A DNA stretch of 64,000 nucleotides from an uncultured Acidobacteriota bacterium (GTDB lineage: Bacteria > Actinomycetota > Acidimicrobiia > Spongiisociales > ZC4RG35), in assembly GCA_963734115.1 (NCBI GenBank), contig CAVTFV010000008.1:367537-431536 (forward strand). Reading direction: 5' to 3'. The first letter of the stretch is position 1. Each line of letters begins with the position of its first letter. The notes below the pieces were generated by a model, which was given only the letters and a program-made list of their open reading frames with translations, did not search any database and was not told the origin of the DNA. The position numbers were made by a program, and so were the translations under genes. Of this stretch, positions 2,033 through 61,291 are shown piece by piece.

Positions 2033-3190
2033 ATGAGTCAAAGAGCCATGACCCACCACCCGGCACCCGACCCCGACCTGGCCCTTCGCTATCTAGAAGG
2101 GGGCGTCGACGACGGCGCGCTCTTCGCCCACGCCCGGGCGCTGCGTGACGAGGGACGTGGGCCGGTAGTGACCTACAGCCGGAAGGTGTTCATCCCCCTC
2201 ACCACGTTGTGCCGCGACCGCTGCACGTATTGCACCTTTGCCAAGCCACCGGGGGCCGGAGGGATGTATCTCGAGTCCGACGAGGTCCTTGCGATCGCTC
2301 GGGCGGGGGACGAGGCAGGCTGCACCGAGGCGCTGTTCACCCTGGGCGACCGGCCCGAGGAGCGCTGGCCCCAGGCCGCCTCGTTCCTTTCTGCCCGTGG
2401 TCTGCACTCGACGATCGAATACGTGGCCGAGATGTCGGCGATGGTGCGCTCGGAAACATCTCTCTTCCCCCACGCCAACCCTGGCCTGCTCGACGATGAC
2501 GACATGACACTTCTGCGCCCGACCAATCCGTCGATGGGGATGATGCTGGAGAACATCTCACCCCGGCTCATGGAGCCCGGAATGCCCCATCACGGGACTC
2601 TTTCCAAGGACCCTGCTCGCCGGGTGGCGACCATCGAGGCAGCGGGTCGGGCGAAGGTCCCATTCACCACCGGGATCCTGGTCGGGATCGGGGAGACCAG
2701 AAGCGAGATCATCGATTCACTGTTCGCCCTGCAAGAGCTTGGCCAGGCCACCGGGGCGATCCAGGAGGTCATCATCCAGAACTTCAGGGCCAAGGCCGAC
2801 ACTCCCATGCGGCACTCGGCCGAGCCGGTGCCCCGCTGGTTTGCCCGTGTCGTCGCACTGGCTCGATGGATCATGGGCCCTGAAGCCAATGTCCAGGTGC
2901 CGCCAAACCTGACCGAGCAATTCGAGATATACCTGGAGGCCGGGATCAACGACTGGGGAGGCGTCTCCCCGCTCACGATCGACTGGGTGAATCCCGAAGC
3001 GCCCTGGCCCCATCTCGACGAGCTACGGGGCCGGACAGAGGAAGCCGGTTTCACGTTGCGACCACGTCTACCCGTCTATCCGGATTACATCGACGAGGAT
3101 TGGATCGACGCAGGGTTGTACACAGATGTGGTGGCGGCCGCCGACAAAGACGGTCTGGCACTCATCCCGGAGACATCAGGAGCAAGATGA
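2033..3190 (+). CDS. cofG: 7,8-didemethyl-8-hydroxy-5-deazariboflavin (FO) synthase subunit CofG (FbiC N-domain-like)
   Basis: Radical-SAM CxxxCxxC (CRDRCTYCTF) and CofG-like overall sequence. Stop overlaps the next start (ATGA). Confidence 0.8.
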   Translation: MSQRAMTHHPAPDPDLALRYLEGGVDDGALFAHARALRDEGRGPVVTYSRKVFIPLTTLCRDRCTYCTFAKPPGAGGMYLESDEVLAIARAGDEAGCTEALFTLGDRPEERWPQAASFLSARGLHSTIEYVAEMSAMVRSETSLFPHANPGLLDDDDMTLLRPTNPSMGMMLENISPRLMEPGMPHHGTLSKDPARRVATIEAAGRAKVPFTTGILVGIGETRSEIIDSLFALQELGQATGAIQEVIIQNFRAKADTPMRHSAEPVPRWFARVVALARWIMGPEANVQVPPNLTEQFEIYLEAGINDWGGVSPLTIDWVNPEAPWPHLDELRGRTEEAGFTLRPRLPVYPDYIDEDWIDAGLYTDVVAAADKDGLALIPETSGAR

Positions 3191-5052
3191 CGATCACGTT
3201 TCTCAGAGTGCGTCCGGCCGAGAAGCTGGCCGAACCAACGGCGACCAGCAGACGTCGGGAGGGAACGACCTCAATCGAGATGCTGTCGCCCACTTCCGCA
3301 GAGCTGACTGCGGCCCACAAGTCCGGTGTTCTGGTGGTGTCGGAGAGCGTGACCGACGTGGACCCTGATGCTTGGGTCGTCGAACCCAAAGAGGCGCTGA
3401 GCCTCGCCGAGCGAGGAGTTCCAGGATGGCGTCTGACCGTCGTTGCCGAGGGTTCCCGGGAATCGATTCTGGACGCACTGGCCAGGTCGAGGGCGTGCTT
3501 CGCACGCACCACACGATCGGAGATCTCCGAGATCGCTGCGCTGTCCTCCTTGCCCGGAGTCGACTTCTCGACGTCCGTTTTCGTCGATGATGTCTCCCAG
3601 GCTCTGAGGGCGGTAGACCATGGGGCGACCGATCTGCTGCTGCGCGATTGGGACGTGGAAGGGATTGGCGAGCTACGCGCGGCCCTCGGTGATCGACGTC
3701 TCGTGGAGAGGACCGCTTTCCCTCCGGGCATCGAGATCGACGAGGCCCGCGGTGTGCTGCCCGCCGACACGTTCGCTGCCTGGCTGAGCCAGGTCGACGG
3801 TTCAGGCGTGGCCCGGCCACGATATGAGTGGGCGCCCGGGAAGGACCTCCCGCCACCGGTGCCCCGCGATCGTCTTTCGGCGGAGTGGCTGGACAGAACC
3901 TGGATCGACGGGTCGGCCACCTCGTTTCCCGGGTCGGCGGCGGAGCTGGCGCCCATACTCGAGCGCTCGCTGGAGGGCATCGCGCCGACGACAGACGAGG
4001 TCGAAGCACTATTCCACGCCAGAGGGGATCAGGTCGATGCCGTCGCCCACGTCGCCGACATCCTCAGGGAGCGGGCGACCGGGGACACGGTCACCTATGT
4101 GGTGAACCGGAACATCAACTACACCAATCTCTGCTACTTCAAGTGTGGCTTTTGCGCCTTCTCCAAAGGGCCGCGCAGCCTCAATCTCAGGGGTGAGCCC
4201 TATTTGATGGGATTGGACGAGATCGTGGAGCGGGCCGTCGAGGCCTGGGGGCGGGGTGCCACCGAGGTGACGCTCCAGGGCGGCATTCATCCCGATTTCA
4301 CCGGCAACTTCTACGTCGATGTCGTCAATGCGATCAAGTCGGAGCTGCCCGACATGCATATCCATGGCTTCACCCCGCTCGAGGTTTGGCAGGGGGCCGA
4401 GACCCTCGGGATACCGGTACGTCGCTTTCTCGAGGAGTTGAAGGCGGCGGGTCTGGGCACGCTTCCGGGGACCGCCGCCGAGATCCTGGACGACGACGTA
4501 CGGGCCCATCTCTGCCCTGACAAGATCCGGACTTCCCAGTGGGCCGAGGTGATGATCACCGCCCACGAACTGGGACTGCGGGCCACTTCGACGATCATGT
4601 TCGGCCATATCGACCACCCGCGGTCATGGGCCAATCATCTCGAGGTGATCCGCGTCATCCAGCGCCGGACCGGCGGGTTTACCGAGATGGTGCCGCTGCC
4701 CTTCGTCCACATGGGATCGCCGATCTTCCTCAGGGGCAGAGCCCGTCCCGGGCCCACCTGGGACGAGGTGGTGCTCATACATGCCGTGTCCCGGATCGCT
4801 CTCGACGGGCTGGTGCCAAACATCCAGGCTTCCTGGGTCAAGCTCGGCCTCGATGGGGGGAGGCGTCTGCTCGACGCTGGATGCAACGATCTCGGTGGGA
4901 CCCTGATGGGCGAGATAATCACCCGCTCGGCCGGGGCCGCACACGGGCAGGAGGTCACGCCACTGGAGTTCCGGGAAGTGATCGAGGCAGCAAGGCGCCG
5001 GCCGGCGCTGCGCTCGACGACCTACGAGATCCTCGAGCCTCAGCCGCGATAG
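3187..5052 (+). CDS. cofH: FO synthase subunit CofH (FbiC C-domain-like) with an unusually long N-terminal extension
   Basis: NRNINYTNLCYFKCGFCAF radical-SAM motif and CofH-like C-terminal 370 aa. The ATG at 3187 overlaps the cofG stop (ATGA). About 250 extra N-terminal residues have no recognisable motif. Confidence 0.75.
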   Translation: MTITFLRVRPAEKLAEPTATSRRREGTTSIEMLSPTSAELTAAHKSGVLVVSESVTDVDPDAWVVEPKEALSLAERGVPGWRLTVVAEGSRESILDALARSRACFARTTRSEISEIAALSSLPGVDFSTSVFVDDVSQALRAVDHGATDLLLRDWDVEGIGELRAALGDRRLVERTAFPPGIEIDEARGVLPADTFAAWLSQVDGSGVARPRYEWAPGKDLPPPVPRDRLSAEWLDRTWIDGSATSFPGSAAELAPILERSLEGIAPTTDEVEALFHARGDQVDAVAHVADILRERATGDTVTYVVNRNINYTNLCYFKCGFCAFSKGPRSLNLRGEPYLMGLDEIVERAVEAWGRGATEVTLQGGIHPDFTGNFYVDVVNAIKSELPDMHIHGFTPLEVWQGAETLGIPVRRFLEELKAAGLGTLPGTAAEILDDDVRAHLCPDKIRTSQWAEVMITAHELGLRATSTIMFGHIDHPRSWANHLEVIRVIQRRTGGFTEMVPLPFVHMGSPIFLRGRARPGPTWDEVVLIHAVSRIALDGLVPNIQASWVKLGLDGGRRLLDAGCNDLGGTLMGEIITRSAGAAHGQEVTPLEFREVIEAARRRPALRSTTYEILEPQPR

Positions 5053-8000
5053 GTGAGGCCCCTCGGGGCGGTGGCGAATCCCCACTCCGCCAGGGCGGGA
5101 GCGATAGGTGAGGCGGGAGCGGGCCGTCCGTTGACGGTGTTCACAGTCGTGCGACGGTGCCGGGCGGCGATCTCAGAGAGCCCTCGGCCGAGGTTGCCAT
5201 AGATCGACATGTCTTCGGCCAGGACGGTCAAGTGCCTCCGGCCACGGTCCAGGTAGCCGAGCAACTGGCCCTCCCACAAGAACACGTAGGCACCGGCATC
5301 GCGAGCCAGTCGCGCCTCTTCGACCTCTGGCCAGGGGAGTGCGGCACCGTAAGGGTTGGCCGGGTCGGTAGCGGCGAGGACCGTCAGCTGACGAGCCGGA
5401 TCTGTGCGCAGTCGATCGACCGCTCCTGGGAGTGCGAACTGTGAGCCCCCGAGACCCTCGACGAAGTATCCCCTACGCACCCTGCCCGTCTCTTCCAGGT
5501 GGGAGAACACCGGATAGAGGGCGCTGAACCCGCCGGGATAGCCCTCGGCGAGGATGGCGCTCCGGGTCACGACCCCATGCCTATCGAGGAGCAGGTGAGC
5601 CCAGGCGGCGTGTCGCTCAGTGTCGCTCACCTCTCCACCCACGAGCTGGCCCGTCAGCGACCAGCGCCCGCCCGCATGGGCCGGGAATTGAGAAGAGAGC
5701 CCCGGACGACCGGTTCGTCTCGTGCTGCGCTGTTGGATGAAAGCACGGAGCGGTGCCAGGGTGTCGTTGGTGACATGTCCTGACCAGACCATGTCCCAGA
5801 GATGGTCGAGCAGGGCCACCGGGTCGCCACCTCCGGTGCCGGTGTAGATGTCCCGGAAGAAGCTGGCCCCCCTGGTGTCCAGGAAGTCATGGATCGATTC
5901 GGCCTCAGGCCCCTGCGGCATCTCACCGGGGCCTCTCCACAGCAACCCGAGACCGGATCGCGGGTACAGGGCGAGCTTGCCGTCGCCCGGCCCTAACGAA
6001 TCATGACCCACCCATACGAGGTCGCCATCGAGGAGGAGCCGATCGAGGTGGGAAGCCGGCTCGGTGACCCGTGAGGCGAGGACGTCGCGCTCGAGCACGG
6101 AGGCCGGAATCACCGCGCCCGTGAGCCGCGCGATCGCATCGGTGAGGGCCGTCGAGCTCGACGGAGGATCGTCTCGCACCCCTTGCCAGGCAATGTTGAA
6201 CGCAGCAAGGGAGGCTGGAGGCACCGGCTCTATCTCCCGCCGCAATACGGCCAGGGATCGACGTTTGAGCCGTCTCAGCACCTCGCGGTCGATCCACTCC
6301 CGTCCCTGCCCGCCCGGTCGGAATGCGCCAACATCGACCCGCCCCGAGGCCTCCAGCTGTTGGAGGATCGTCTCGACGATGGCAGTGGGGACGGCGAGGG
6401 CGCCGGCGGCGTCGCCCGCAGTGAACGGCCCGTGGGTTCGAGCAAACCGCCCGACAACGTCACCGAGGGGATCATCCACCGGCTCGAGGAAGACATGCGG
6501 AATCCCGGCGGGTGGTTGGACACCGAGGGCATCGCGCAGCCTCGACACGTCCTCGATTGCGGCCCACCGCGTCACGCCGGCATGGGTGATCTCGACGACC
6601 CTCCGCTGGTCGGTGAGCTCGCTCAGCACTGACGGGATGTCGAGCCCATCGGTGCGCACCTCGAGATCCTGGACGGTCAGTGGGCCGAGGTCTCTCAGCA
6701 TGTCATGGACCCCATCCGCTCGCTTCACACGTCGCGGCTCGGTCAGATACTGCAATTCGAGCTCTACCGCAGCGACCACCTCGGGGTCGATCAGCTCGCG
6801 AAGCTCCCCCTCGCCGAGCAGCTCACGAAGCAGGTCGCGATCGAGCGTCATGGCCGCCGCCCGGCGTTCGGCCAGAGGAGCGTCGGCCTCATAGAGGAAT
6901 GCGGCGATGAATGAGAAGAGCAACGAGGAGGCGAATGGGCTCGGTGAGTCGAGGTCGACGGACGCGATCCTGATGCGACGCCCCCGTATGTCGGTCAGGA
7001 CTTCGATCAAAGAGGGCAGGTCGAAGTCGTCCTGGAGGATCTCCCGGTACACCTCGAGCATGATCGGGAAGGAACCGAATTGCTTGGCCACCCCGAGCAG
7101 GTCGGCGGATCGGCGGCGCTGCAGCCAGAGCGGCGTCCGCTCGCCGGGTCGGCGCCGTGGGAGGAGCAGGGAGCGCCCGGCCGCCTCCCGGAAGCGGGCA
7201 GCGAACAGTGCCGTGTCACCAAGGTGCTCGAGCAGCAAGGCCTCGACATCTTCAGGATCGAGCAGGAGGTCCTCGGCGCCGGGCGGGTTGTCGGCATCGG
7301 GGAAACGGAACGCGATCCCGTCATCTGACCAAATGGCGTCGACATCCACCCCGTACCGGTCCCGGAACCGATGACGCAGCGCCATTGCCCACGGAGCGTG
7401 GACCCGGGCCCCGAGAGGAGAGAGCAGGACGAGTCTCCAATCCCCAATCTCGTCACGAAAACGCTCGACGACGAGCGTCTGGTCAGTGGGCAGCACCCCA
7501 GTCGCCTCCCGCTCCTCTGTGAGATAACCGACGAGATTTCTCGCGGCCAGCTCGTCCAGGTGGAAGCGAGTCACGAGGTCCTCGTGGGCCTCTTCCGGGT
7601 CGAGACGTCCCGTCTGGCGGACAAAGGCTCCGACCGCCCTGCCGGTTTCTATCGACCGCCCCATAGAGTCGCCATGCCAGAAGGGCATCCGGGCAGCCCC
7701 TTCGGCCGGCGCGGGCACGACCTCGACTCGATCGTGGCCGATCTGTGAGATCCGCCAGGCCGTGCTGCCGAGCAGGAAGACGTCTCCCTCGCGCGACTCG
7801 TAGACCATCTCCTCGTCGAGCTCACCTACCCGGCTGCCATCAGGGAGGGTGACGCGGTACAGACCGCGATCCGGGATGGTGCCTGCGTTGGTGACAGCCA
7901 GTTGGAGCGACCCGGGCCGGGCCGTCACCTCGCCTGTCACCCGATCCCAGTTGATGCGGGGTCTCAACTCTGCGAAAAGGTCAGAGGGGTAGCGGCCCGC

Positions 8001-10258: not shown

Positions 10259-10342
10259 CGCTCATCAAGAGCGGTGGAGGGACAGGCCCTGCGAAACCGC
10301 GGCAACCGACTCGAACGGTGCCAATGCCTGAACGATGAGTGG
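10259..10342 (+). promoter_or_regulatory. SAM-I (S-box) riboswitch in the metY leader
   Basis: CGCUCAUCAAGAGCGGUGGAGGGACAGGCCCUGCGAAACCGCGGCAACC...GGUGCCAAUGCCUGAAC-GAUGAG matches the SAM-I consensus (P1 CUCAUC/GAUGAG, GGUGGAGGGA, GCAACC and GGUGCCAAUUCC-like boxes). It lies 60 nt upstream of the metY start. Confidence 0.85.
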
Positions 10343-10401
10343 CCGAGGACGGCTATCCGTCACGGTGCTCGGAAGAGCGCGTAGAGACAGGAGAAACCGT
10401 C

Positions 10402-11688
10402 ATGAGAGATCGAGAATTCGGGTTCGACACCCGTCAGATACACGCCGGGCAGCGACCGGACCCCGAGACCGGTGCCAGGGCGATGCCGATCTACGCCACC
10501 ACCTCGTTTGTCTTCGAGGATGCCCAGCAGGCTGCCGACCTGTTCGCACTGCAGAACTTCGGCAACATCTACACCCGGATCGGCAACCCCACCACTGCAG
10601 CATTCGAGGAGCGGATGGCATCGCTGGAAGGGGGATTGGGTGCACTGGCGACCTCGTCGGGCCAGGCAGCGCAGCTGATCTCGATTTTCACGCTGTGCAA
10701 CGCAGGTGATGAGATCGTCGCCTCCCGATCGCTATACGGCGGCACCTTCACCCAGTTCGACGTCACGCTGCGCCGCATGGGGATCAACGTCACCTTCGTC
10801 GACATCTCAGACCACGGCGCCGTCAAGGACGCGATCACACCCAAGACGAAGGCCCTCTATGGGGAGACCATCGGGAACCCGGCAGCCGACATCCTCGACA
10901 TCAGCGCCATCGCCGATATCGCTCACGACAATGGGATACCGCTGATCGTGGACAACACCTTCGCCACTCCGTATCTGTGCCGGCCGATCGAGCACGGGGC
11001 GGATATCGTGGTCCATTCTGCGACCAAGTTCATCGGCGGCCACGGAGTCGCCATCGCCGGGGTGATCGTCGAATCGGGTCTCTTCCCCTACGACAACGGC
11101 AACTTCCCCGGGATCACAGAGCCATCACCTGCCTATCACGACCTCATGTTCTGGGAGAACTTCCGGGAGTACGCCTTTCTGATGAAGGCGCGGGTGGAGA
11201 GCCTCCGCGATATCGGTGCCGCTCTCTCGCCGTTCAACTCGTTCGTGCTCCTGCTTGGTCTGGAGACACTCTCTCTGCGCATGGCCCGACACACCGAGAA
11301 CGCACGGAAGGTTGCCGAGTACCTCTCAGGGCACCCCGACGTGGCGTGGGTTCGCTACCCGATCTTCCCTAACAACCCATGGACCGACCTTGCGAACAAG
11401 TACGTCCCGGAAGGCCCTGGCGCGGTGTTCACGTTCGGGGTAAAAGGCGGCTTCGACCAGGCCGCCGAGTTCATCGCCCGAGTCGAGCTCGCCTCCCATC
11501 TCGCCAATGTCGGGGATGCCAAGACACTCGTGATCCATCCTGCCAGCACCACCCACCAGCAGGTGCCGGTGGAGGAGCGGCGAGCAGCGGGAGTCGGTGA
11601 CGAGATGATCCGGATCTCTGTCGGGTTGGAGGACATCGACGACATCCTCTGGGACCTTGGCCAAGCTCTGGAAGGGGAAGGGGAATGA
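10402..11688 (+). CDS. metY: O-acetylhomoserine aminocarboxypropyltransferase / sulfhydrylase (PLP-dependent)
   Basis: [12 protein letters not shown], a PLP-lysine region ([10 protein letters not shown]), and a Cys/Met-metabolism PLP-enzyme fold. GGAGA RBS 7 nt upstream of the ATG at 10402. The ORF-track start at 10339 lies inside the riboswitch. Confidence 0.88.
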
Positions 11689-12167: not shown

Positions 12168-12933
12168 TCAGGCCAGACCGTGGTGGCGTGCCGTCTCGAT
12201 GAAGGCGGAAACCCGTCCGGGGTCGAGAGATTCATTGGCAACGCCGTCCAGTTTCAGGTACGAACCGACGATGACTGTGTCGGCGACCTCGGCCAAAGCG
12301 CCCAGGTTGTCGACACTGGCACCAGAGCCGATCACCAACCGCGTCCCTTTGGGCATGACCGATCGCGCCAGCCCGGCCTCCTGCAGATCTGGCTCCAGCC
12401 CGGTGCCGACGCCCGACACGATCACGGCGTCGGCGAGGCCACGACTCATCGTGTCCTCCACTGCTTGCCTGATCTCGAGACCGGGTGGGGGAGTGGCGTG
12501 CTTGACCAGCACATCAGCCCAGATCTCCACGCCCGGGGCTAGTGCCGCCCGGCGACGGGCCAATTCGTCGGCGCGCCCGACGATCGGCCCCTGGTCGGTG
12601 TACATGACCCCGGTGAGCACATTGACCCGGATGAAGGCGGCCGCGGTCACGGCGGCGATGCCCAGAGCGGAGAGGGCGTCATTGCGGAGCACGTTGACGC
12701 CGAACGGGAGCCCGGTGGCATCGCGTACGACTCGCGCCGCCAACGCCATGGCGGCGACCGTCTCCGGGTCGGATGAGTCGGCGTGAAAGGGTACGTCACC
12801 GAAGTTCTCCACGAGCAGCGCGGGGAATCCGGCTTCGGCCAGAGCCACCGCATCGCCAGCCGCGGCAGTCGAGGACGTCGTCGATCGAGCCCTTGAACCC
12901 GGGTGAGCCGGGAAGCGGGAGAAGATGGATCAT
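12168..12933 (-). pseudogene. btpA: BtpA/SgcQ family TIM-barrel protein, split by a +1 frameshift near 12867
   Basis: N-terminal MIHLLPLPGSPGFKGSIDDVLD is in one frame and AAAGDAVALAEAGFPALLVENFGDVPF continues in another. Removing one base near 12867 restores a continuous BtpA-like protein. Confidence 0.65.
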
Positions 12934-12956: not shown

Positions 12957-13688
12957 TCAAAGGTAAGCCCTGGCTACCTGCATCGCTTTCTCGGCGTATT
13001 CGCCGGAGACTTTGAGGTTGGTCTTCTTCGGCTTGATCCTCCGCACCGCGATTCGGGCCCAATCCGACGCCGAGCCCTTGATCAGCTCGTCGGTGTCTTC
13101 GGGGCCGTAGACCCACTTGGCGTATCCGGGGCCGATGACCTCGACGCGGATTGGCTCGTAGTCCTCTCCGGCGTGCTTGAAGGCGTGGGGGAGGGTCTTC
13201 CATCCCAGCCAGCAAACGTGTCGGATCCGGGCGGTGTCTTCGACCTCGATGCCAAGCGTGGCGTAGATGTCGAGACCGTGCATCCAGGTCTCCATGAGAC
13301 GGAACGTGGCGAAGGTGCGGGCACTCATGTCACCGTCGATCCAGTCGATCCTGGAGTCCGGCTCCATGTGCGAGAGCGGCTCCACGACCTTGGCCCTGCC
13401 GCCGCGCCACCATTCGATCACGTCTTGAGGGCGCATGCTGCGGCCCTTCTTGATCGCCTCGGCGCGGAGCGGGCCGAGCTTCGGAGCGTTCTGCCAACGC
13501 TTGAGCATTTTCCCGCCGGCGATGGTGTCGGCGGCCAACTCCTCGTAATCGGCGAGATGGGCGATCGTGTCGCGCACCGTCCATGGCTTGGACGGCGTGA
13601 CCATGTCCCAGATCTTGATGGGGATCCTCTGGAGGGACTGATCGAGGAACTGTTGCTCGGCTACCAGGTCCGAAAGGATGTCGCGCAC
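12957..13688 (-). CDS. TIGR03084/DinB-MDMPI-like actinobacterial protein (mycothiol maleylpyruvate isomerase N-domain-like)
   Basis: 243 aa; WTVRDTIAHLADYEE is a DinB/MDMPI_N-type motif. Conserved actinobacterial hypothetical. Confidence 0.55.
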   Translation of the reverse strand: MRDILSDLVAEQQFLDQSLQRIPIKIWDMVTPSKPWTVRDTIAHLADYEELAADTIAGGKMLKRWQNAPKLGPLRAEAIKKGRSMRPQDVIEWWRGGRAKVVEPLSHMEPDSRIDWIDGDMSARTFATFRLMETWMHGLDIYATLGIEVEDTARIRHVCWLGWKTLPHAFKHAGEDYEPIRVEVIGPGYAKWVYGPEDTDELIKGSASDWARIAVRRIKPKKTNLKVSGEYAEKAMQVARAYL

Positions 13689-13738: not shown

Positions 13739-14821
13739 CTACCAGGGTCTTTCTGCGTGCTCTTCGGTCATCGGCTCGGGCAGGTGGGAAGGTTTGGGGG
13801 CGACCACCAGGTCGTTGAGGGCGTCGATCATCATCCGCAGACGGCCGAAATGGCGGCGGTCGAACACGAAGGCGATGCGGTGCAGGTGGAGCGCATCGGT
13901 GTCCTCCAACTCGGCCACGCTGGGCTCGACCTTCTCGATCTTGCCTTCGACGACGATGTCTGCGAAGTCGGCGTTGAGCTTCTCGATCGTGTCGTCGGAA
14001 GGCTCCTCGTTGAGTCTCAGGACCAGCCTTCCGCCCGAGTAGCGGGAGGAGTGGTAGTTGCCGTAGAAATGCCACATGTGCTCGGCGGCGGCCTGGGCGT
14101 CCGTGGTCTGGAAGAAAAGGGACATGTCCGACTCGCTGATGAGCCCGCGATCAAGCTGCTGCTCCACGATGAACCCGATCATCGGCTCCCAATAGCCAGT
14201 CCCCTCTGCTTCGAGCAAGACCACGGGGTGGAGATCGCTCTTGCCTGTCTGGACCAGAGTGAGCAGCTCGAACGTCTCGTCGAGCGTGCCCCAGCCACCC
14301 GGGAGCAGGACGAAGGCGTGTGCCTCCTTCACAAAACCGAGCTTGCGGGTGAAGAAGTACTTGAAATTGACCGTTCGCTCGGGGGCGATGTGTTTGGGGA
14401 CCTCGTCCTCGAAGGGGAGACGGATGTTCACGCCATAGGCATGGTCTATGCCTGCGCCGCGGCTGCCCGCCTCCATGATCCCCGGGCCTGCGCCGGTGAT
14501 GATGCCCCATCCACTCTTGGCCATGATCGAGGCGAACTCCTCGGTCAACGCGTAGTTGGGATCGCCCTCCTTGATCCGGGCCGAGCCATAGATGGTCACT
14601 TTCGGCTCTTTGTGCCGGGCGAAGACGAGGTTCGAGTAGCGCATCTCCTTCAGCGCAGTGTTGATCAGCTTCAGGTCCGCCCGCGAAGCACCGTCTCTGC
14701 CCAGCTTGATGGCGGTCACGATCAGCTCGTTGATGAGCTCGGGGTGCTGCGTGGTCGTGGCCGCCGACACGAGCTCGACGAGCTTGGCATCTAGCTCGGG
14801 GTTGCCCAAGTCGTAAGGCAT
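13739..14821 (-). CDS. LOG-family (TIGR00730) nucleotide 5'-monophosphate nucleosidase, extended PpnN-like form
   Basis: Core LOG motifs GAGPGIMEAGSRGA and LLPGGWGTLDE, plus about 100 aa N-terminal and 110 aa C-terminal extensions. 360 aa. Confidence 0.75.
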   Translation of the reverse strand: MPYDLGNPELDAKLVELVSAATTTQHPELINELIVTAIKLGRDGASRADLKLINTALKEMRYSNLVFARHKEPKVTIYGSARIKEGDPNYALTEEFASIMAKSGWGIITGAGPGIMEAGSRGAGIDHAYGVNIRLPFEDEVPKHIAPERTVNFKYFFTRKLGFVKEAHAFVLLPGGWGTLDETFELLTLVQTGKSDLHPVVLLEAEGTGYWEPMIGFIVEQQLDRGLISESDMSLFFQTTDAQAAAEHMWHFYGNYHSSRYSGGRLVLRLNEEPSDDTIEKLNADFADIVVEGKIEKVEPSVAELEDTDALHLHRIAFVFDRRHFGRLRMMIDALNDLVVAPKPSHLPEPMTEEHAERPW

Positions 14822-14854
14822 CCCCCGACGGTACTCAGGTACCGGACAACGACG

Positions 14855-15844
14855 TTAGAACGGCTTGGCGGACGGGCCTTTGCGCACCACCGCGTTCCAC
14901 ACCGTCTCGTAATGGTCCCGGTCGAAGAGGTCGACGTGGGGGAGCACGTACTCCTCCCAGGCTTGCCGGAGGGGATCAGGGCGGTCCGAGTGAACCACCA
15001 GGCCGGTGGGAAGGCGATCGAGCACAGAGCGCAGCGACAGGGGTGTCTCTACCCTGACTCCTGAGTCCTGAGCCTCGAAGGAAGCGTTCACCTCGACGGC
15101 GAGACGGGCGATGGCCGTCACGTACTCCTCCTTCAACCGCGGATACCTGCGAGTGAGCATGGCCTCGACCTGGTCTCCGCCGGGGAAGTTCTTCTCCCAG
15201 ATCACCCAGCGATCGGCGAACGCCTTGTTCAGTGTCTGCGTGCCCGCATAGTCGCGGAGGTCGGTCGGGTTCATCGTCCCGAAGATCCGCACGTCAGGCC
15301 TCAGCCGCACCGTCTCACCGGTGGGCAAGTCGAGCGATGAGTAGCGGTCGAGCAAGCCGTGGAGCGCGAACAGGGTCTCGGCCCCGGCCGCGTTCAACTC
15401 AGAGAGGTTCAGCAAGGAGGGACCACGCAGGGCACGGGTGATGTCTCCGTCCTCCCAGCGACTTTCCGTGCCCCCTTTTCCGTCGCCGTGGAGACGGGTG
15501 GACCCGATCAGGGTGACGTCGCGAACCTCTCCGGTGAGGGGAATCCGGAAGTAGGGGAGACCCATTGCGGCGGCGAACTGCTCGATGTCGTGGTCCTTGC
15601 CGGTCCCCATGTGCCCTCGCACCGCGACATGGAGCGGCACCAGGCCTTCGGCCCCCGACGCCCGGGCGTGCTCCAGCTGGGCGAACCGGTAGAGCATTCC
15701 CAGATCGACGTAGTGCGGGTCGGGCTCGGGGACCTTGCGATGCCTCAGCTCGGTGTCCGGCACGTCGTCGGGGATCTCGAATCGCTCGAGGGTGATAGCC
15801 GGCCCTTCACCGGCCGGGTCTTCGAAAATGACTTTCTTAGGCAA
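14855..15844 (-). CDS. CobS-like MoxR/CbbQ-type AAA+ ATPase with an atypical Walker A (GHMGTGKD)
   Basis: VRGHMGTGKDHDIEQFAAAMGLPYFRIPL, VRIFGTMNPTD (sensor-1-like) and DRWVIW resemble aerobic cobaltochelatase CobS and NorQ-family ATPases. Overlaps the upstream VWA gene by 8 nt. Confidence 0.7.
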   Translation of the reverse strand: MPKKVIFEDPAGEGPAITLERFEIPDDVPDTELRHRKVPEPDPHYVDLGMLYRFAQLEHARASGAEGLVPLHVAVRGHMGTGKDHDIEQFAAAMGLPYFRIPLTGEVRDVTLIGSTRLHGDGKGGTESRWEDGDITRALRGPSLLNLSELNAAGAETLFALHGLLDRYSSLDLPTGETVRLRPDVRIFGTMNPTDLRDYAGTQTLNKAFADRWVIWEKNFPGGDQVEAMLTRRYPRLKEEYVTAIARLAVEVNASFEAQDSGVRVETPLSLRSVLDRLPTGLVVHSDRPDPLRQAWEEYVLPHVDLFDRDHYETVWNAVVRKGPSAKPF

Positions 15845-17918
15845 CAGATGTCTCCTGGTATGTCTTGATCTCTGACGCCCTCAGCCACCAAGTGTCCATG
15901 CCCCAAAGGGCGAGACTTCGACGCAGGGCGTTTCGGGTTCCATTGATCATTGCCTGGGTCAGGTCCTCGGGTTGGGACACGACCTCGTGACGACGGTAGG
16001 CCTCGTCGACGGTGTGATCCCCGATCCCGATCCCGATCACGGTGGTACCACTGGCCTCGACCGCGGCCACCGACTTGGCCAGCGCCTCGAGCGAACCACG
16101 GGTCATCCCGTCGGCGAGCACCATGAGCACCCGCACCTGGGCACCGAGCCGGGCCATGCGCTCGGCGGCGTGGATGATGTTGAACTCGTCCACGTTGGCC
16201 GCCTTTTCGAACAGGGACACCGGTGGAGCCTTCTTGGGGTCCCGGCGGGCCAGCGTGGCCGCCGATCTCGGCTCCGCCGCCGTGTAGAAGAGGCCTGCGA
16301 GCGTCGGCTCGGCGTCTCGCCAGCGCCGCTCGAACGGCTTGACGACGTAGTGGTTCACTGTGGTGGTGAGACGATCGGCAGCCGTGCCCTGGGTTCGCCT
16401 CAGCCCAGCTGTGGCCGCCGACCTCTTCCGGCGGTAGCTGTCCTCGGTGTCATCTGGCCGTGCAGCAAAGCCGCGATTGAACAGGGCCACCTCGAAGTCG
16501 ATCTGCAGCTCGTCGCAGAGCCGGGCCATCGTCCAGGCCCCGAGCATGGCCGCCGGCATCGCCCACGAACTGCCCGCTTTGCCGGGGCTGAGCATCGAGG
16601 CCGAGGCGTCGACGAGCAGCGAGACGGCATAAGTCCGCCTGGTTCGCGCCGCTCTCCGTTCGTAGAGACGCTGATAGAGCCCTGCCCCGATGAAGAGAGC
16701 CGCGTGGGGGGACACATCACCCTGGTCGAAGCCGGAGCGGAGCCCTCTGCGCTGGTTGGCGGCGAAGAGTGGGAACAACTCCCCGGACACCCGACGCTGG
16801 GCAATGCCCCAACGTTGCGCTGTCCGTGCCAGCGCCACGGCTCCCTCATTGGAGAAGCGGGCAAAAGAGGACGGGATCGGCCCCACGACCAGCTTTCCAC
16901 CCTGACCGGTGGGAAGGAAGACGTCGGGCGCCTGACTGACCCGCAGCAGCTGGTCGGTCGACTCTTCGTCGGCGATATCGGAGGCACCTTTTCGGTCGGA
17001 CATGCCGGAGCGGGCCTCGCTCGACCGTCTGGTGTCCTGGTAGGAATCGGCATCGGTGAGGATCGGCGAGGTCATGCGCACCGCATCCACCCCGTCTTTG
17101 GCCTTCTCGGCGTCCGCCTGAGCTGCATGTTGTTGCTTGGCATGCGTGTCGTTGGCCTGCACTTCGGTGATCAGGCCATGGGCACGGGCGATGGCTTCCA
17201 GCTCCAGGGCGAGTTGCGCCACCTCCCATGGATCATCGGAATCTGCTGCCATTTCGCAGTGATGCATTGCGTCATCTATCGCCGCAGTGGCTCGTGACTC
17301 GAAGCGCTTCTCCAGGACCTCGCGCTCGATGTACCCGCCGGTGAGGAGAAAGCAGCCGAGAACGAACTGGCTGAGGGCCCCCGAACGCGAGATGGCCTGG
17401 CTGAGGGATGACATGTACAGGTCGGCAAGCACCGATCTGGCCCCGGGATAGGCAGCGAGACCTTGTGCCTCCTGTCTTGCGTCTTCGAGGGAGAAGAACA
17501 GAACCTCGGCCACAGGCTTGTTGGTGCGCTCGAGAGCGGTGAGCAGGTCGACCTTTACGTCCGGGGCAAATTCGCCCTCGATGGGCCATCCGTCGGGGAC
17601 CTCCCTCGTCTCGTCGAGGTTGGTGGATACAAGATGCATGACCTCATGCAAGGCGGAGGCAATGGCCACCTCGTCGGGGGTGACCGGGGCGTGGCGGTGG
17701 TACGCCGCCTGGAAGATCCGGGGATCGCAAACCACCTCGTCGGCCGAGGCCGCCGCCTCCGAGCCGAGCCGAACCCGCAGATTCGGGTTGTTGGACAGGG
17801 TCCTGGCGAATCGAGTGACCGCCGGGGCGACACGCTGATAGCGGCTCACCACGGCCTCGATTGCCTGGTCTTCGGGCCCGATCAGGTCGGTGAGAAACGT
17901 CTGGTCGCGTCCGCGCAT
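15837..17918 (-). CDS. CobT/NorD-like protein with C-terminal von Willebrand factor A (VWA) domain
   Basis: 693 aa. The C-terminal VWA has a MIDAS motif (SLLVDASASM). A large helical N-terminal region gives a CobT/NorD/CbbO-like architecture. Tandem with the AAA+ gene. Confidence 0.7.
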   Translation of the reverse strand: MRGRDQTFLTDLIGPEDQAIEAVVSRYQRVAPAVTRFARTLSNNPNLRVRLGSEAAASADEVVCDPRIFQAAYHRHAPVTPDEVAIASALHEVMHLVSTNLDETREVPDGWPIEGEFAPDVKVDLLTALERTNKPVAEVLFFSLEDARQEAQGLAAYPGARSVLADLYMSSLSQAISRSGALSQFVLGCFLLTGGYIEREVLEKRFESRATAAIDDAMHHCEMAADSDDPWEVAQLALELEAIARAHGLITEVQANDTHAKQQHAAQADAEKAKDGVDAVRMTSPILTDADSYQDTRRSSEARSGMSDRKGASDIADEESTDQLLRVSQAPDVFLPTGQGGKLVVGPIPSSFARFSNEGAVALARTAQRWGIAQRRVSGELFPLFAANQRRGLRSGFDQGDVSPHAALFIGAGLYQRLYERRAARTRRTYAVSLLVDASASMLSPGKAGSSWAMPAAMLGAWTMARLCDELQIDFEVALFNRGFAARPDDTEDSYRRKRSAATAGLRRTQGTAADRLTTTVNHYVVKPFERRWRDAEPTLAGLFYTAAEPRSAATLARRDPKKAPPVSLFEKAANVDEFNIIHAAERMARLGAQVRVLMVLADGMTRGSLEALAKSVAAVEASGTTVIGIGIGDHTVDEAYRRHEVVSQPEDLTQAMINGTRNALRRSLALWGMDTWWLRASEIKTYQETSVA

Positions 17919-20599: not shown

Positions 20600-21860
20600 T
20601 TGAGCCGACGCGCCATCCTCATCACAGTCCTCCTCTTGATTGGCGGCTGCACGTCGGGGGGAGACGCCGGGGATGTCCTTGCAGCCGAGGGGGATGATCT
20701 CGCCGCGACGACGACCGTCCCCGGTATCCAGCTCCTGGGGAAGGTGACCGATCCAGCCGGCGTCCCGGTGCCACGGGCAACGGTGACGGTCGGAGCAGAC
20801 TCGGCCGTGACCGCGCCGGACGGCTGGTTCGACATGCTCGCCACCCCAGGCCCGGTCCAGGTCGAGAAGCCGGCGTGGGTCGGAGCGGAGTCGACCTGGG
20901 ACGGCTCCAATGCTTTCACCCAGATGGCGATCGAGCCCCGTCGGCTTCGCGCTTTGAGGGTTGGCGCCGAGGCGGCAGGGAACGACGAGAGATTCGCTGC
21001 CGCGCTGGCCCTGGCCGATGAGACCGCGATCAATGCTTTCGTCTTCGACACCAAGCAGGAAGGGGGGAAGGTCTTCTACGAGACCGGGGTCACGGAAGCC
21101 CATGAAGCGGGCGCCGTGGTGAATGTCTACGACCCGGCAGAGCGACTCGCCCAGGCGAAAGAGCACGGGCTCTACACCATCACCCGGATCGTCACCTTCG
21201 AGGACTCGTACCGGGCGGCGTTCCGGCCCGAAGAGGCATACGACGGGAAGTGGATCAACCCGACCAACACCGCGGCATGGGAATACCCGATTGCATTGGG
21301 CGTAGAGGCTTGCCAGCTCGGGTTCGACGAGGTCCAGTTCGACTACGTCAGATTCCCGTCTGAGGAGGCGGCACAGATCAGTGGCCAGCTCGAGATGACC
21401 GAAGAGGAGCGGACCACGTGTCATCGAGGGCTTCCTCCGAGCAGCCAGTGACAGGATCCATGCCGAGGGTTGCGCGGTGAGCGCCGACGTCTTCGCCATC
21501 GTCGTCTCAGCCAGTAACGATCAGGGGATCGGGCAACGACCCGAAGAGCTCACCCGCCACCTCGATGCCTTCAGCCCGATGGTCTACCCGAGCCACTACT
21601 CGCCGGGCTGGCTGGGGTTCGACGATCCCAACGAGCACCCCTACGACGTCACCTCGGACGCCATCCAGGACGCCCAGGAGCGCATCGAGCAGGGTGTCGT
21701 CCTGCGGCCCTGGCTGCAGGCGTTCTGGTGGACCAACGAGCAGATCCGGACGTCGATCCAGGCGGCCGAGGACCTCGGTGTGGGGTGGATCCTGTGGAAC
21801 GCGGTCAGCAATTTCGATCGCGCCGCCATCCCCACCGACGCCGAGCTAGCCGCTTCCTAG
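20600..21860 (+). pseudogene. Lipoprotein with glycoside-hydrolase-like TIM-barrel domain (GHL/DUF4015 family), split by a +1 frameshift between 21399 and 21448
   Basis: Lipobox LLIGGC. FVFDTKQEGGKVFYETG...DYVRFP is in frame 2, and VIEGFLRAASDRIHAEGCAVSADVF...WWTNEQ continues in frame 0. Both halves belong to the same family. Confidence 0.6.
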
Positions 21861-30040: not shown

Positions 30041-31528
30041 CTAAGGGTGGTGCATGGCTGCGATTACCTCGCCGAAAGCCTCGATGCTCCCTTCGAGATG
30101 CACGTCGGGCATGACCACTATGGAGTGGCTCGCACCGGCCGCCTGATAACCATTCATGTGATCGAGTTGGTCTGCGACGGTGCCGGCGTTGTGCCGGGCC
30201 ATGAACGCCTCGGCTGACATGTTCCGCCCCCGCAACTGCTCCACTCGCTCACGCAATGCGTCCCGATCCGTCGCCGCCATGACATTGACCAGATGGCTGA
30301 CCTCGATCTCATCGGGGTTCCGCTCGATCTTGGCGCAGTGGCCGTGGAGCACATCGACTTTGCGACGGATGACCTCTGGGGCGCCGAAGAGATTGCAGGC
30401 GTCGGCATACTGGGCGACGAGGCGGAGAGTCCGCTTCTCCCCGGACCCCCCGATCAGGATCGGGATGTGGTCCTGGATGGGACGTGGGTAGCAGATCAAC
30501 TCGGGGGCGGAGAACGTCAAGCCCGAGAACGAAGGGGATCCCTTCCCCCAGAGGAGGGGCAGCATGCGAAGGGTGTCCTCTAGTTGGTCGTAGCGTGCCG
30601 AGGTGGATGGAAACGGGATCCCATAGCCCTCGTGCTCAGCCCGGTCCCATCCGATGCCGAGACCGAGGGTCACTCTGCCGCCGGAGAGGACGTCGAGGGT
30701 GGCCACCGTCTTCCCCAGGACCACAGGATGGCGGTGCCCGATCCCGGTCACGAGGGTCCCCAGCCGGATCTCGCTGGTGATCCCGGCCATGAAGGCGAGC
30801 GTGGTGTACGCCTCGGGGATGTCCTCCCATCGGCGGCCGACCTGGGGAATCTGACGGAAGTGGTCCATCACCCAGAGATCGTCGAATCCGGCGGCCTCGG
30901 CTCGCGAGGCGATGGAAGCCAAATGCGAGGCCATTCCGGTGCGATCCCCGGGCCAGTCGAATCTATTGACCACCAGTCCGAACCGGTGCATTCGTTGGGC
31001 GGCGCGGTCGTCGCCTGATTGGCTGCTTTGGGAGATGATCGAGGGTGCGACAAGAGCAATGGGTTGCTCGATGACCACCCGATCGAAGCCATCGTCGTCG
31101 ATCTCCGCCTGCACGGCCCGGAACCTGCTGAGCTGTTTGTCGAGCACGGTCTTCGGGATGGGCCGCGGCCGCTCGGTGTTGCGGGCGCGCGCTTGGTCGG
31201 GCGGTATGTCGAAGACGACGGCGACCGCCGGAATTCCGGCGTCGTGGGCGTGGCCGACCCATCTCCGTCGATTGTCCCTGTCGTAGCCCAGACTGTCGAT
31301 GACAGTCGTCAAGCGGCGCCGCATCCGCTCTTCCACTATCTGTTCCAGTATCGAGAAAGCAGCGGTGCCAGCCTGCTGGTCGTCCTCTCCGGCGCCCACC
31401 ATTCCGCGGAGCCGATCCGAGGACACGATCTCCGTTTCACGAAACGTCCCGGCCGCCCACGTGCTCTTGCCCGAGCTCGACGCGCCGACCAGCACCACCA
31501 GGCACGGGGCGGGCAGACGCAGCTCCAT
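30041..31528 (-). CDS. Fusion protein: N-terminal P-loop kinase domain (PNK/zeta-toxin-like) plus C-terminal LLM-class F420-dependent oxidoreductase
   Basis: Residues 1-165 carry VVLVGASSSGKST (Walker A) with kinase-like downstream D/R motifs. Residues 180-495 begin MHRFGLVVNRFDWPG...AGFDDLWVMDHF...LGLGIGW, typical of luciferase-like monooxygenases. There is no stop between the two parts. Confidence 0.6.
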   Translation of the reverse strand: MELRLPAPCLVVLVGASSSGKSTWAAGTFRETEIVSSDRLRGMVGAGEDDQQAGTAAFSILEQIVEERMRRRLTTVIDSLGYDRDNRRRWVGHAHDAGIPAVAVVFDIPPDQARARNTERPRPIPKTVLDKQLSRFRAVQAEIDDDGFDRVVIEQPIALVAPSIISQSSQSGDDRAAQRMHRFGLVVNRFDWPGDRTGMASHLASIASRAEAAGFDDLWVMDHFRQIPQVGRRWEDIPEAYTTLAFMAGITSEIRLGTLVTGIGHRHPVVLGKTVATLDVLSGGRVTLGLGIGWDRAEHEGYGIPFPSTSARYDQLEDTLRMLPLLWGKGSPSFSGLTFSAPELICYPRPIQDHIPILIGGSGEKRTLRLVAQYADACNLFGAPEVIRRKVDVLHGHCAKIERNPDEIEVSHLVNVMAATDRDALRERVEQLRGRNMSAEAFMARHNAGTVADQLDHMNGYQAAGASHSIVVMPDVHLEGSIEAFGEVIAAMHHP

Positions 31529-46675: not shown

Positions 46676-47317
46676 GTGCACCCACTTCTGGCCATCTTCC
46701 GTGACGCCGCGGTCGATCGATTCCCCGAGATGGACGGGGGGGTCACCTTCCTCCCCGAACTGGGCGACGGTCAGGAGGCGGTGGTGTGCTTCACGGGCCA
46801 CGCCTTCATCGCTAGCCGTCTCGGAGCCAATGATCTGTCCGACCTCGCTCCCGATGGGTTCGGCCGGGCGCTCCATCCCGAGGTCCTGCTCCGACTGGCC
46901 GGGCCAGGAGGGAGGATCGGATCGATCGACATCACGATGTACGCCGAAGGCCATGGTGGCGGAGCCCTGGTACCCCGGCCCGAGCTCGACCAGCATCCCC
47001 GGGTGGCTTTCGCCCGAGCCAGGCGGGAGGAGGTACAGGCCTACGGGGCGCCGGACGGTCTGTTCACACTGGGCATCGGCCTGGGAGGTCGACGGGAGAT
47101 GAGCGTGGAGAACTCTCAGGATGGCCCACGAGGGCGTCACCTGATCCATCAGGCGCTGACTATGACCCCCCATGGAGAACACCTATTCGCGGCCGTCGCG
47201 CCGGGGAACGCTCGCTCCGTGCGATCGTTCCTCGCCTGTGGGTTCGTACCCATTGCCAGCGAGGTGCTGATCCGCGTCGAGGGTTTGGGACACGAAAAAG
47301 AGGGGCAAGTATTGTGA
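46676..47317 (+). CDS. Hypothetical protein (possible GNAT-like fold)
   Basis: 213 aa with no strong motif. The C-terminal region weakly resembles a GNAT acetyl-CoA-binding segment. Confidence 0.4.
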   Translation: MHPLLAIFRDAAVDRFPEMDGGVTFLPELGDGQEAVVCFTGHAFIASRLGANDLSDLAPDGFGRALHPEVLLRLAGPGGRIGSIDITMYAEGHGGGALVPRPELDQHPRVAFARARREEVQAYGAPDGLFTLGIGLGGRREMSVENSQDGPRGRHLIHQALTMTPHGEHLFAAVAPGNARSVRSFLACGFVPIASEVLIRVEGLGHEKEGQVL

Positions 47318-47354
47318 GCCCCAGGAGCAGCGCTGTTCTCGGAGGGAACCCGTC

Positions 47355-48410
47355 ATGAACATCGTCCACGTGGTGGGCACCGGCACCATCGGTGAGCCCC
47401 TCATCGGCCTCCTCGCCGACAACAAGGAACATTTCGGCATCGAAGAGGTGACGTTTCACAAGCGCACTCCCTTGCTGACCGAGAAGGCCAAGGTCGCCGA
47501 TCTCGAGGGCAGAGGGGCTGTGCTGGCCGTGGACGAGGAGCGTTTCTCTTCGTTCCAGGAATTGGGCCACGCTCCCAAGTACGAGGCACGGGAGGCGATC
47601 GAGCGGGCCACCGTCGTCATCGACTGCACCCCGGTCGGCAACGGGATGAAAGAGGAGTTCTACAACCACGCCGATGGGCCAAGAGGTTTCATGGCCCAGG
47701 GCTCGGAGTTCGGATTCGGCAAGATGTACGCCCGGGGCATCAACGACAGCGCCCTCGTCGCCGGCGAGGACCGGTTCCTCCAGATCGTGTCTTGCAACAC
47801 CCACAACATCGCCGCCCTTGTGCGCTCTCTGGCCATCGATTCCGACGGCACCAATCATCTCGAGGACGGTCGCTTTCTCTGCATGAGGCGGGCCAACGAC
47901 ATCAGCCAGGACGACGGCTTCGTCGCCAGCCCAACCGTCGAACCCCACAAAGACGAACGTTTCGGGACGCATCACGCCAGGGACGCCCATGAGCTGTTCG
48001 AGACCATGGGTTACGACCTCAACGTCTACTCCTCGGCGGTGAAGCTCAACACCCAGTACATGCATTCGATCCAGTTCTCGCTGCAGCTGGACGAGGAGAT
48101 CACCGTGGACGACGCCATAGAGCGACTGATGGCGAACACCAGGGTCGCAGTGACTCATAAGAAGTCGGCCAACCAAGTGTTCTCGTTCGGTCGTGACCAC
48201 GGGTACTTCGGGAGGATCATGAGCCAGACGGTGGTGGCCTTGAGCACTCTGGCCGTTCGCAATGGCAACGAGGTCGTCGGTTTCTCCTTCACCCCACAGG
48301 ACGGGAACCCGCTCCTCTCCACGGTGGCCGCGATGCTCTGGTATCTCGACCGGGACAGTCTGGACGACCGTATCGACATCCTCCGTCGCTACCTGTTCCG
48401 CGAGATCTGA
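47355..48410 (+). CDS. Type II (archaeal-type) glyceraldehyde-3-phosphate dehydrogenase-like NAD(P)-dependent dehydrogenase
   Basis: N-terminal Rossmann motif VHVVGTGTIGEP and active-site-like VSCNTHN (compare the SCNTT motif of type II GAPDH); 351 aa. Confidence 0.5.
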   Translation: MNIVHVVGTGTIGEPLIGLLADNKEHFGIEEVTFHKRTPLLTEKAKVADLEGRGAVLAVDEERFSSFQELGHAPKYEAREAIERATVVIDCTPVGNGMKEEFYNHADGPRGFMAQGSEFGFGKMYARGINDSALVAGEDRFLQIVSCNTHNIAALVRSLAIDSDGTNHLEDGRFLCMRRANDISQDDGFVASPTVEPHKDERFGTHHARDAHELFETMGYDLNVYSSAVKLNTQYMHSIQFSLQLDEEITVDDAIERLMANTRVAVTHKKSANQVFSFGRDHGYFGRIMSQTVVALSTLAVRNGNEVVGFSFTPQDGNPLLSTVAAMLWYLDRDSLDDRIDILRRYLFREI

Positions 48411-48664: not shown

Positions 48665-48695
48665 GCGATAGCTCCCGGTTCCTAAGCTGCCGGTC

Positions 48696-61287: not shown

Positions 61288-61291
61288 CGAC

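Follow-up and report, generated by a model that had tools for sequence, protein, structure and literature searches.

Several systems in which a AAA+ ATPase works with a partner carrying a von Willebrand factor A (VWA) domain are already known, namely CobS and CobT of the aerobic cobaltochelatase, the cobST clusters of phages, and the MoxR/VWA pairs. CobS and CobT have been solved by cryogenic electron microscopy (cryo-EM) and crystallography: in CobS, Walker A extends from G71 to S78 and Walker B comprises D141 and E142, the "shaft" of CobT enters the pore of the CobS ring, and the crystal structure of CobT_N is said to resemble the M48C peptidase fold (CobSTN preprint). CobS/CobT-like pairs without cobN are moreover widespread in tailed phages, where their role has only been guessed at (hijacking of the host CobN), and a published remark holds that cyanophage cobT is frequently annotated as a peptidase. 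According to the literature, most prokaryotes that possess cobN lack cobST and use ChlI/ChlD-type subunits. In this work, we analysed a window of 64 kb (contig CAVTFV010000008.1, forward-strand positions 367,537 to 431,536, from an uncultured bacterium placed among the Acidimicrobiia in GTDB), in which a CobT-like VWA protein and a CobS-like AAA+ ATPase are encoded by adjacent minus-strand genes, followed downstream by a gene of the LOG family. All coordinates below are those of this window unless a locus is named.

The reading that we favour, with a probability of about 0.55, is that the two proteins constitute a CobST-type motor-adaptor of an HExxH-retaining branch, encoded by a core two-gene operon, with a client encoded elsewhere and with the LOG protein as a separate entity. 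This branch of CobT is otherwise known from tailed phages, while the pair described here is fixed, under strong constraint, in the core genome of an uncultured lineage of Acidimicrobiia. Novelty resides in the combination of a cellular, core-genome CobST-like pair that retains HExxH, a fixed reciprocal substitution between Walker A and Walker B, and the lack of B12 context in the window; literature searches found no paper on any of these three features.

The VWA-AAA+ gene pair and its two proteins

The VWA gene, an open reading frame (ORF) read from the sequence at 15837-17918 (minus strand, 693 amino acids, aa), overlaps the start of the AAA+ gene at 14855-15844 (minus strand, 329 aa) by 8 nucleotides (nt), TTGCCTAA. 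The AAA+ gene begins with TTG, and a Shine-Dalgarno sequence, AGGAGA, is located 6 nt 5' of this codon. Database homologues of each of the two proteins number over 1,000; among the 120 listed per protein, identity to the window protein was 82-98% (AAA+) and 77-99% (VWA). The three ORFs, including that of the LOG protein, are real genes and did not arise by chance. The motifs quoted for the three proteins were re-derived by translation.

Conservation of the pair was evaluated in 82 loci from the clade of the window (AAA+ identity 79-99%) and 80 loci from a sister clade (AAA+ identity 67-81%, VWA identity 49-68%). The VWA gene was directly upstream of the AAA+ gene in every locus with upstream sequence (146 of the 162), and the distance between the VWA stop and the AAA+ start was -8 nt in the close clade (range -11 to -8); for the sister clade, the median was +1 nt (range -17 to 189). 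The AAA+/VWA family was found in 477 GTDB species genomes, the best 80 of which were all metagenome-assembled, most being labelled Acidimicrobiia or Actinomycetota and some being evidently mislabelled; the nearest homologues of the pair come from metagenome-assembled Acidimicrobiia genomes. Near-identical copies of the locus (L004-L006, L008, L011, L012, L042 and L052) were found in records titled "uncultured Acidobacteriota", "Boseongicola sp." or "Gammaproteobacteria", which, in view of their gene content and of identities of 82-99%, look like mislabelled or misbinned Acidimicrobiia genomes.

The larger protein escaped routine annotation. Its listed homologues are all named "hypothetical", no Pfam or NCBIfam model matched it at threshold, the CobT family PF06213 reached only 13.7 bits (cut-off 26.1) and covered the N-domain alone, and CobT_C (PF11775) gave no match. 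Profile searches of the PDB, run for the full VWA family and again for the N-domain by itself, returned nothing significant, a related match (the CobT C-domain) appearing below threshold only. By contrast, when 31 family members were compared by hhalign with genuine CobT from Sinorhizobium and Methylobacterium, residues 30-665 of the family paired with residues 19-615 of CobT over 531 columns (probability 96.6%, E-value 5.8e-10). Alignment with four phage CobT-like proteins gave probabilities of 90-97%, and PHROG models of phage CobT matched the N-terminus (residues 17-77) and the C-terminus (residues 571-661). As judged from these profile alignments, the 693-aa protein is homologous to CobT from one end to the other.

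[quoted passage not shown] The shaft-like segment (residues 374-428; 16635-16799, minus strand) lies just before the VWA core and nearly all of its residues are invariant; it aligns with the CobT region just upstream of the MIDAS, and we infer that it corresponds to the CobT shaft and may act as such. The VWA domain (15903-16631, minus strand) possesses a complete MIDAS (D437-x-S439-x-S441, N522 and D603), whose DASAS motif, at 16596-16610, is invariant in the family, in agreement with the intact MIDAS first reported for this protein. In the AlphaFold2 model of the 693 aa (mean predicted local distance difference test score, pLDDT, of 60), the VWA domain was confident, and Foldseek placed it closest, within the PDB, to the VWA domain of NorD in the NorQ-NorD complex (9qh8_G, E-value 5e-6) and then to the MIDAS domain of human MDN1 (8ql1, E-value 1e-5).

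The AAA+ protein matched Pfam AAA_5 (PF07728) with 50.4 bits, above the gathering cut-off of 22. The CobS model TIGR01650 aligned over residues 42-216 only, with 54.6 bits (E-value 9.3e-15), far below its cut-off of 558.55. Its best single-domain PDB match was nevertheless CobS (9ujv, E-value 4e-13), followed by NorQ (E-value 1e-10) and CbbQ, midasin outranking CobS only because several AAA domains are summed. BLASTP indicated 30% identity to Sinorhizobium CobS over 274 aa, an alignment that includes the CobS-specific N-terminal segment P-x-x-DP-x-Y. These comparisons and the CobT alignments uphold the CobS/CobT-like nature initially assigned to the pair. Among 1.84 billion representative proteins, the AAA+ family amounts to one cluster at 50% identity (P0241, 70% identical) plus fragments, and the next full-length relative of prokaryotic size (381 aa) is only 40% identical; on sequence clustering, the family is a tight, isolated orthologous group. 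A scan of viral contigs with the nearest outgroup ATPase, P0337, gave no match.

The whole architecture is that of the CobS/CobT cobaltochelatase of the Brucella/Pseudomonas type (9ujv series). The proteins are similar in size (329 vs 328 aa and 693 vs 637 aa), the genes are adjacent, the domains follow the same order (N-domain, linker of about 90 aa, shaft, VWA/MIDAS), and the P-x-x-DP-x-Y segment, the Arg finger in DRW, the sensor residues and the N-domain pattern ExARxEAxG are shared. Their gene order differs, however, being T-S in the window and S-T in the chelatase. In NorQ/NorD, CbbQ/CbbO and midasin, as in the pair, the ATPase is of the AAA_5 type and carries helix-2 and pre-sensor-1 inserts, and the client is bound by the MIDAS of a VWA partner, in line with the structural matches of the VWA model to NorD and MDN1, but sequence matches to them are weaker than those to CobS. 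To our knowledge, a zincin-like N-domain has not been reported for NorD or CbbO.

The ATP site, the HExxH motif and the nature of the client

Direct coordination of Mg2+ in P-loop sites is provided by the hydroxyl of Walker A, with support from the Asp of Walker B. Both positions are altered here. Walker A reads GHMGTGKD (15593-15616, minus strand), with Asp84 in place of Ser/Thr, and Walker B reads LLNLSE (15398-15415, minus strand), with Ser148 in place of Asp and with the catalytic Glu149 retained. Walker A aligns with GTGKS of CobS and GKT of midasin, and Ser148 with the Asp in VFDE of CobS and VLDE of midasin. The initial annotation had read GKD correctly and had considered an altered or inactive ATPase or a base error; the deviation is a fixed character of the family and reflects neither a base error nor decay, since GHMGTGKD is invariant in all 120 homologue clusters listed and in 162/162 loci, always together with the Walker B exchange (hhhhSE, within a hhhhSELNAA pattern, rather than hhhhDE, in 162/162 loci). 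A sequencing error was thus ruled out by the presence of the motif in every homologue. Canonical GK[ST] and DE were found in P0337 (whose Walker B reads ILDE), in genuine CobS from Sinorhizobium and Methylobacterium, and, of four phage CobS-like ATPases checked, in three; the remaining one, from phage ICP2, had GKS, and its Walker B position was not located. Literature searches on GKD variants of Walker A, and on cobN in Acidimicrobiia, found no papers.

The remainder of the site is well preserved. Glu149, sensor 1 Asn192 and the Arg finger Arg212 are invariant in the family, the sensor-2 motif with Arg272 is retained in most loci, these four residues align with the corresponding residues of CobS, and the RIFGTMNP and FADRW motifs are present. 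A carboxylate and a hydroxyl have thus been swapped between Walker A and Walker B, with net charge unchanged. With an invariant catalytic Glu, sensor 1 and Arg finger, and a sensor-2 Arg kept in most loci, the substitutions point to a rewired, compensated and probably working Mg-ATP site, not to a dead one.

The N-domain of the VWA protein displays an HExxH motif, H91-E92-V-M-H95 (17634-17648, minus strand), and, downstream, an EDARQE motif, E145-E150 (17469-17486, minus strand), which is a candidate source of the third metal ligand. HExxH is invariant across the 120 clusters listed and in both clades, and so is EDARQE, including in the sister clade, where N-domain identity is only 50-60%; the combination of HExxH with an invariant downstream Glu (E145/E150) is that expected of a zincin sequence. 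In genuine CobT, the position of HExxH is occupied by GDSMA, while EDARQE aligns with VEQARVE. Of four phage CobT-like proteins checked, those of Rhizobium phage B1VFA, Vibrio phage ICP2 and phage T5S1 retain HExxH, in the same alignment columns as in the window protein, and EDARQE aligns with ED/E...E motifs of the phage proteins.

The phage clusters (PHROG 249/5298/17276) resemble the window pair in further respects: they consist of two genes without cobN, in the order T then S in Pseudomonas phage nickie, B1VFA and ICP2, and their MIDAS reads DxSGS. They differ in that identity is about 25%, the motifs of their ATPases are the canonical GK[ST]/DE, additional domains are found at the N-terminus of these ATPases, and they reside in the replication modules of mobile genomes, whereas the window pair belongs to the vertically inherited core genes of at least 477 species-level genomes. 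In nickie, B1VFA and T5S1, the pair adjoins replication genes (primase, ligase, DNA polymerase III alpha, DNA polymerase, primase/helicase), and the neighbours of the ICP2 pair are unannotated (phage pairs at L163 4714-8115, L168 1327-5057, L170 3326-7132 and L169 1588-4434). Such a replication-gene setting, together with HExxH, sits oddly with a purely B12-related role.

The main rival of the reading favoured here makes the pair the genuine motor-adaptor of a class-I tetrapyrrole chelatase, be it an aerobic cobaltochelatase or another one, whose CobN/ChlH-type subunit would lie elsewhere in the genome. The shared architecture and the rank of CobS as the best single-domain PDB match are consistent with it. 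As first noted, cobN is lacking nearby: no cob/cbi genes, cobN or B12 riboswitch were found in the window, in which about 40 long ORFs were scanned. It should be noted, however, that no ORF of the size of cobN occurs near Sinorhizobium cobS-cobT, over about 4 kb upstream and 2 kb downstream; since genuine cobST is also unlinked to cobN, the lack of this gene in the window is uninformative. Viral cobST pairs have likewise been proposed to use the host CobN (literature). Nonetheless, the 30% identity to CobS is low and the scores are far below the curated CobS and CobT cut-offs; GKD with SE replaces the GKS with DE of CobS, an alteration seen in none of the genuine or phage CobS sequences checked; and the HExxH lost in genuine CobT is kept. 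Beyond the missing cob genes and riboswitch, the host is actinobacterial, and the literature would lead one to expect CobN to work there with ChlI/ChlD-type subunits, as in most prokaryotes with cobN. Finally, in our judgement, an AAA+ protein conserved at 67-99% within core synteny seems atypical for an accessory of a cofactor pathway. We therefore hold a chelatase role to be unlikely.

A tentative proposal, on which we would not place much weight, is that the pair is a cellular, vertically inherited descendant of a phage-type cobST, acting on a protein client as an ATP-driven zinc metalloprotease or metallochaperone targeted through its MIDAS, and not as a chelatase motor. A narrower version of this idea appears somewhat less probable still: an ATP-driven, MIDAS-targeted metalloprotease, in which an active HExxH domain would cleave a client held by the VWA domain and positioned or unfolded by the AAA+ ring. 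The invariance of HExxH and of the downstream acidic motif under strong purifying selection is in line with such an activity, as are the HExxH motifs of the phage proteins, the M48C-like CobT_N structure (preprint) and the peptidase annotations of cyanophage cobT. On the other hand, no significant match of the N-domain to a peptidase family was obtained by profile or by fold, HExxH could bind a metal in a structural or metallochaperone role, genuine CobT works without HExxH, and the substrate is hypothetical. The AlphaFold2 model of the isolated N-domain (pLDDT 70, predicted template modelling score 0.69) was of low confidence over the HExxH helix, and neither it nor the model of the 693 aa displayed a confident zincin core; with this low-confidence model, Foldseek found no match in the PDB, and the only matches, weak ones, were to models of phage CobT-like proteins.

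The LOG gene and the surrounding region

The LOG-family gene (13739-14821, minus strand, 360 aa) follows the AAA+ gene after a 33-nt spacer (14822-14854, minus strand), which contains a 6-bp hairpin (CGGTAC-CTGA-GTACCG) without a T-tract. A terminator scan indicated no terminator-like site in this spacer, so that co-transcription of the AAA+ and LOG genes is plausible in this genome, and the LOG gene probably shares a transcript with the pair here. On the opposite side of the pair, 20 bp separate the VWA start codon from the M16 peptidase ORF, which begins at 17939 and is on the plus strand. This arrangement of three minus-strand genes, with its 8-nt overlap, 33-nt gap and divergent M16 gene, was as originally described.

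The core of the LOG protein (approximately residues 68-247) contains an intact PGGWGTLDE (14276-14302). It passed TIGR00730 (100.3 bits, cut-off 96.35) and matched PF03641 with 95 bits, and its best PDB match was the type-II LOG of C. glutamicum (5wq3, E-value 8e-37), a cytokinin riboside 5'-monophosphate phosphoribohydrolase with which the core and part of the N-terminal extension align and whose PGGxGTxxE and GxGxG motifs it carries. Unlike that enzyme, it has an additional C-terminal domain of about 110 aa (13742-14074), which belongs to no Pfam family; a search with this extension alone retrieved only 27 short fragments, whose few named sources are Acidimicrobiia. The PpnN-like identity first suggested was rejected, given that NF038390 scored 40.1 bits against a cut-off of 450 and that the flanking domains are missing: DUF4478, DUF3412 and any other Pfam family gave no match in either extension, even at E ≤ 10. 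Sequence comparison thus favours a separate enzyme, a nucleotide phosphoribohydrolase of type-II-LOG-like character whose C-terminal domain is specific to the lineage. A miaA gene (tRNA isopentenyltransferase) is present at 56176-57054 (plus strand), about 41 kb from the LOG gene, which implies no linkage. As a source of isopentenyl-adenine nucleotides, bacteria that lack dedicated cytokinin synthases are considered to use tRNA isopentenyltransferase.

The initial annotation had presented the three genes as an operon and had raised the possibility that LOG is the output of an NTP-dependent regulatory or conflict module. In a module of this type, the pair would regulate or mature the LOG enzyme; in another version, LOG would be the client of the MIDAS. 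Co-directionality, the short spacer and the lack of a terminator-like site speak for such a module in this genome, and the lineage-specific C-terminal extension of LOG could be a docking domain. In the close clade, the gap between AAA+ and LOG was at most 200 nt in 65 of 81 loci, 201-1,000 nt in 14 and above 1,000 nt in 2, and no locus lacked LOG within 2.5-8 kb downstream; in the sister clade, the corresponding counts were 6, 12 and 17 of 35, LOG being 0.2-4.5 kb from AAA+, and so usually within 5 kb, in 29 of these 35 loci and missing within 2.5-8 kb downstream in six loci.

Adjacency is thus not conserved. In the two close-clade loci with long gaps that were inspected, one or two alpha/beta-hydrolase genes separated AAA+ from LOG. 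In L123, the single sister-clade locus with LOG that was read in detail, the order was AAA+, DUF520 (plus), phosphoribosyltransferase (minus), HAD hydrolase (minus) and LOG (plus), the two minus genes being on the opposite strand; in L158, all genes downstream of AAA+ were on the opposite strand and unrelated to LOG, with no LOG within 8 kb. Of the proposed operon, the VWA-AAA+ adjacency was therefore invariant and the LOG linkage was not, and the expectation that the three genes would be neighbours across relatives failed in both clades, where LOG proved separable.

In this genome, the same-strand run continues past LOG into a DinB/MDMPI gene (12957-13688, minus strand, after a gap of 50 nt) and then a BtpA gene (12168-12848, minus strand, after 108 nt), so that the logic that includes LOG in the module would include DinB and BtpA too. 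LOG, DinB and BtpA move together as a block of their own, and M16 also drifts away. LOG is, moreover, among the least conserved genes of the neighbourhood (47-98% identity) and evolves much faster than the pair, while AAA+ is the most conserved (67-99%). Chromosomal synteny is conserved, genes having been inserted or deleted around a VWA-AAA+ core of two genes that is itself invariant, and LOG is a syntenic neighbour, not an obligate partner or functional component of the pair. A three-gene module is accordingly the most doubtful of the readings that we retained. A defence or conflict system was rejected, in view of the lack of any PADLOC-DB match for the three proteins (E ≤ 0.01), the core-genome position without signs of mobile elements, and the slow evolution of AAA+.

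Two other neighbours were tried as partners of the pair and set aside. The M16 peptidase lies at a median distance from the VWA gene of 84 nt in the close clade but 1,350 nt in the sister clade. DUF520/YajQ occurs downstream of AAA+ in 20 sister-clade loci, in either orientation (L123 9040-9525, L158 4128-4790, L151 2039-3457 and about 17 others), and is absent from the close-clade locus; in 16 loci of the sister clade, it is followed by an isochorismatase-family gene. Upstream of the sister-clade pair, ArfB-like and hydrolase genes were found, the ArfB-like RF-1 domain gene recurring in 18 loci.

The window as a whole (G+C 62-67%) is a typical actinobacterial core region. It includes genes for Lhr helicase, metY preceded by an S-adenosylmethionine (SAM) riboswitch, M16, glycerol-3-phosphate dehydrogenase, znuA/ABC-3, dapA, RNase J (rnj), ftsK, the glyoxylate shunt, rimO, cinA, recA, RNase Y (rny), miaB, miaA and dapF, together with tRNA genes. 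No phage or transposon genes and no nor or cbb genes were found among the approximately 40 long ORFs scanned. The SAM (S-box) riboswitch (10259-10341, plus strand; Rfam RF00162, 75.9 bits) is directly 5' of an O-acetylhomoserine sulfhydrylase-like ORF (Cys_Met_Meta_PP, 10339-11688), whose listed GTG start at 10339 overlaps the aptamer, so that the true start is probably a downstream codon. CofG/CofH-type radical-SAM genes, for synthesis of the F420 chromophore, are present at 2033-5052. A DUF4015 gene (putative glycosyl hydrolase) appears as two ORFs corresponding to the N- and C-terminal halves of the Pfam family (20600-21451 and 21477-21860, plus strand), while its orthologue in L001 is a single gene of 432 aa (3911-5209); the split may reflect a frameshift, a pseudogene or an assembly error. 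In a 495-aa ORF (30041-31528, minus strand), an AAA_33 kinase-like domain (residues 10-137) is followed in the same chain by a luciferase-like monooxygenase domain (residues 190-468). An ORF of 910 aa (47160-49892, minus strand) has no Pfam match, overlaps the rimO/MiaB-like gene on the opposite strand (48696-50012) and is likely to be a spurious product of high G+C content. The tRNA genes Gly(GCC)-Cys(GCA)-Val(GAC) form a cluster at 61026-61288 (plus strand), with a separate tRNA-Val(CAC) at 62555-62631 (plus strand).

Proposed mechanism and significance

From a mechanistic point of view, the structures of the CobSTN preprint served as the template, and we infer the mode of action of the pair from homology to this solved CobST motor. 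The CobT-type adaptor and the translationally coupled CobS-type ATPase would act as a unit. The ATPase would assemble as a hexameric ring; the N-domain of the adaptor would dock on the small subdomain of the ATPase, and the shaft would enter the pore of the ring. ATP turnover would then move the adaptor, while its MIDAS face would hold a client protein encoded elsewhere in the genome.

Several points weigh against this motor-adaptor reading. The client is hypothetical, being proposed by analogy. The GKD/SE site could be a regulatory site that binds ATP only, hydrolysis being deduced from the retained residues. The zincin (M48-like) fold of the N-domain is a prediction, the model being weak over the HExxH helix. 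Lastly, in both clades most loci have the LOG gene no more than 5 kb from the pair, and in most of the close clade (the 65 of 81 loci given above) it is within 200 nt of AAA+, so that a looser functional link is possible.

Two over-readings of this locus are thereby corrected: the LOG gene is a neighbour and not part of a module, and a Walker A that looks "degenerate" is no indication of a sequencing error or a dead enzyme. While pairs of this kind without cobN were familiar from tailed phages, a similar pair is now seen as constrained core genes in hundreds of uncultured Acidimicrobiia species, with no B12 genes in the 64-kb window. The reciprocal Walker A/Walker B swap bears on Mg-ATP coordination in P-loop sites and, if the site is indeed functional, would constitute the first working AAA+ site with an exchange between the hydroxyl of Walker A and the carboxylate of Walker B. 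The intact HExxH, for its part, sits in the very domain that the CobSTN structures describe as a peptidase-like fold without known activity. Together, the swap and HExxH suggest that this branch has a client other than a chelatase and that the chelatase adaptor descends from an active zincin; if this is true, an active zincin would be the origin of the CobT adaptor of class-I chelatases.

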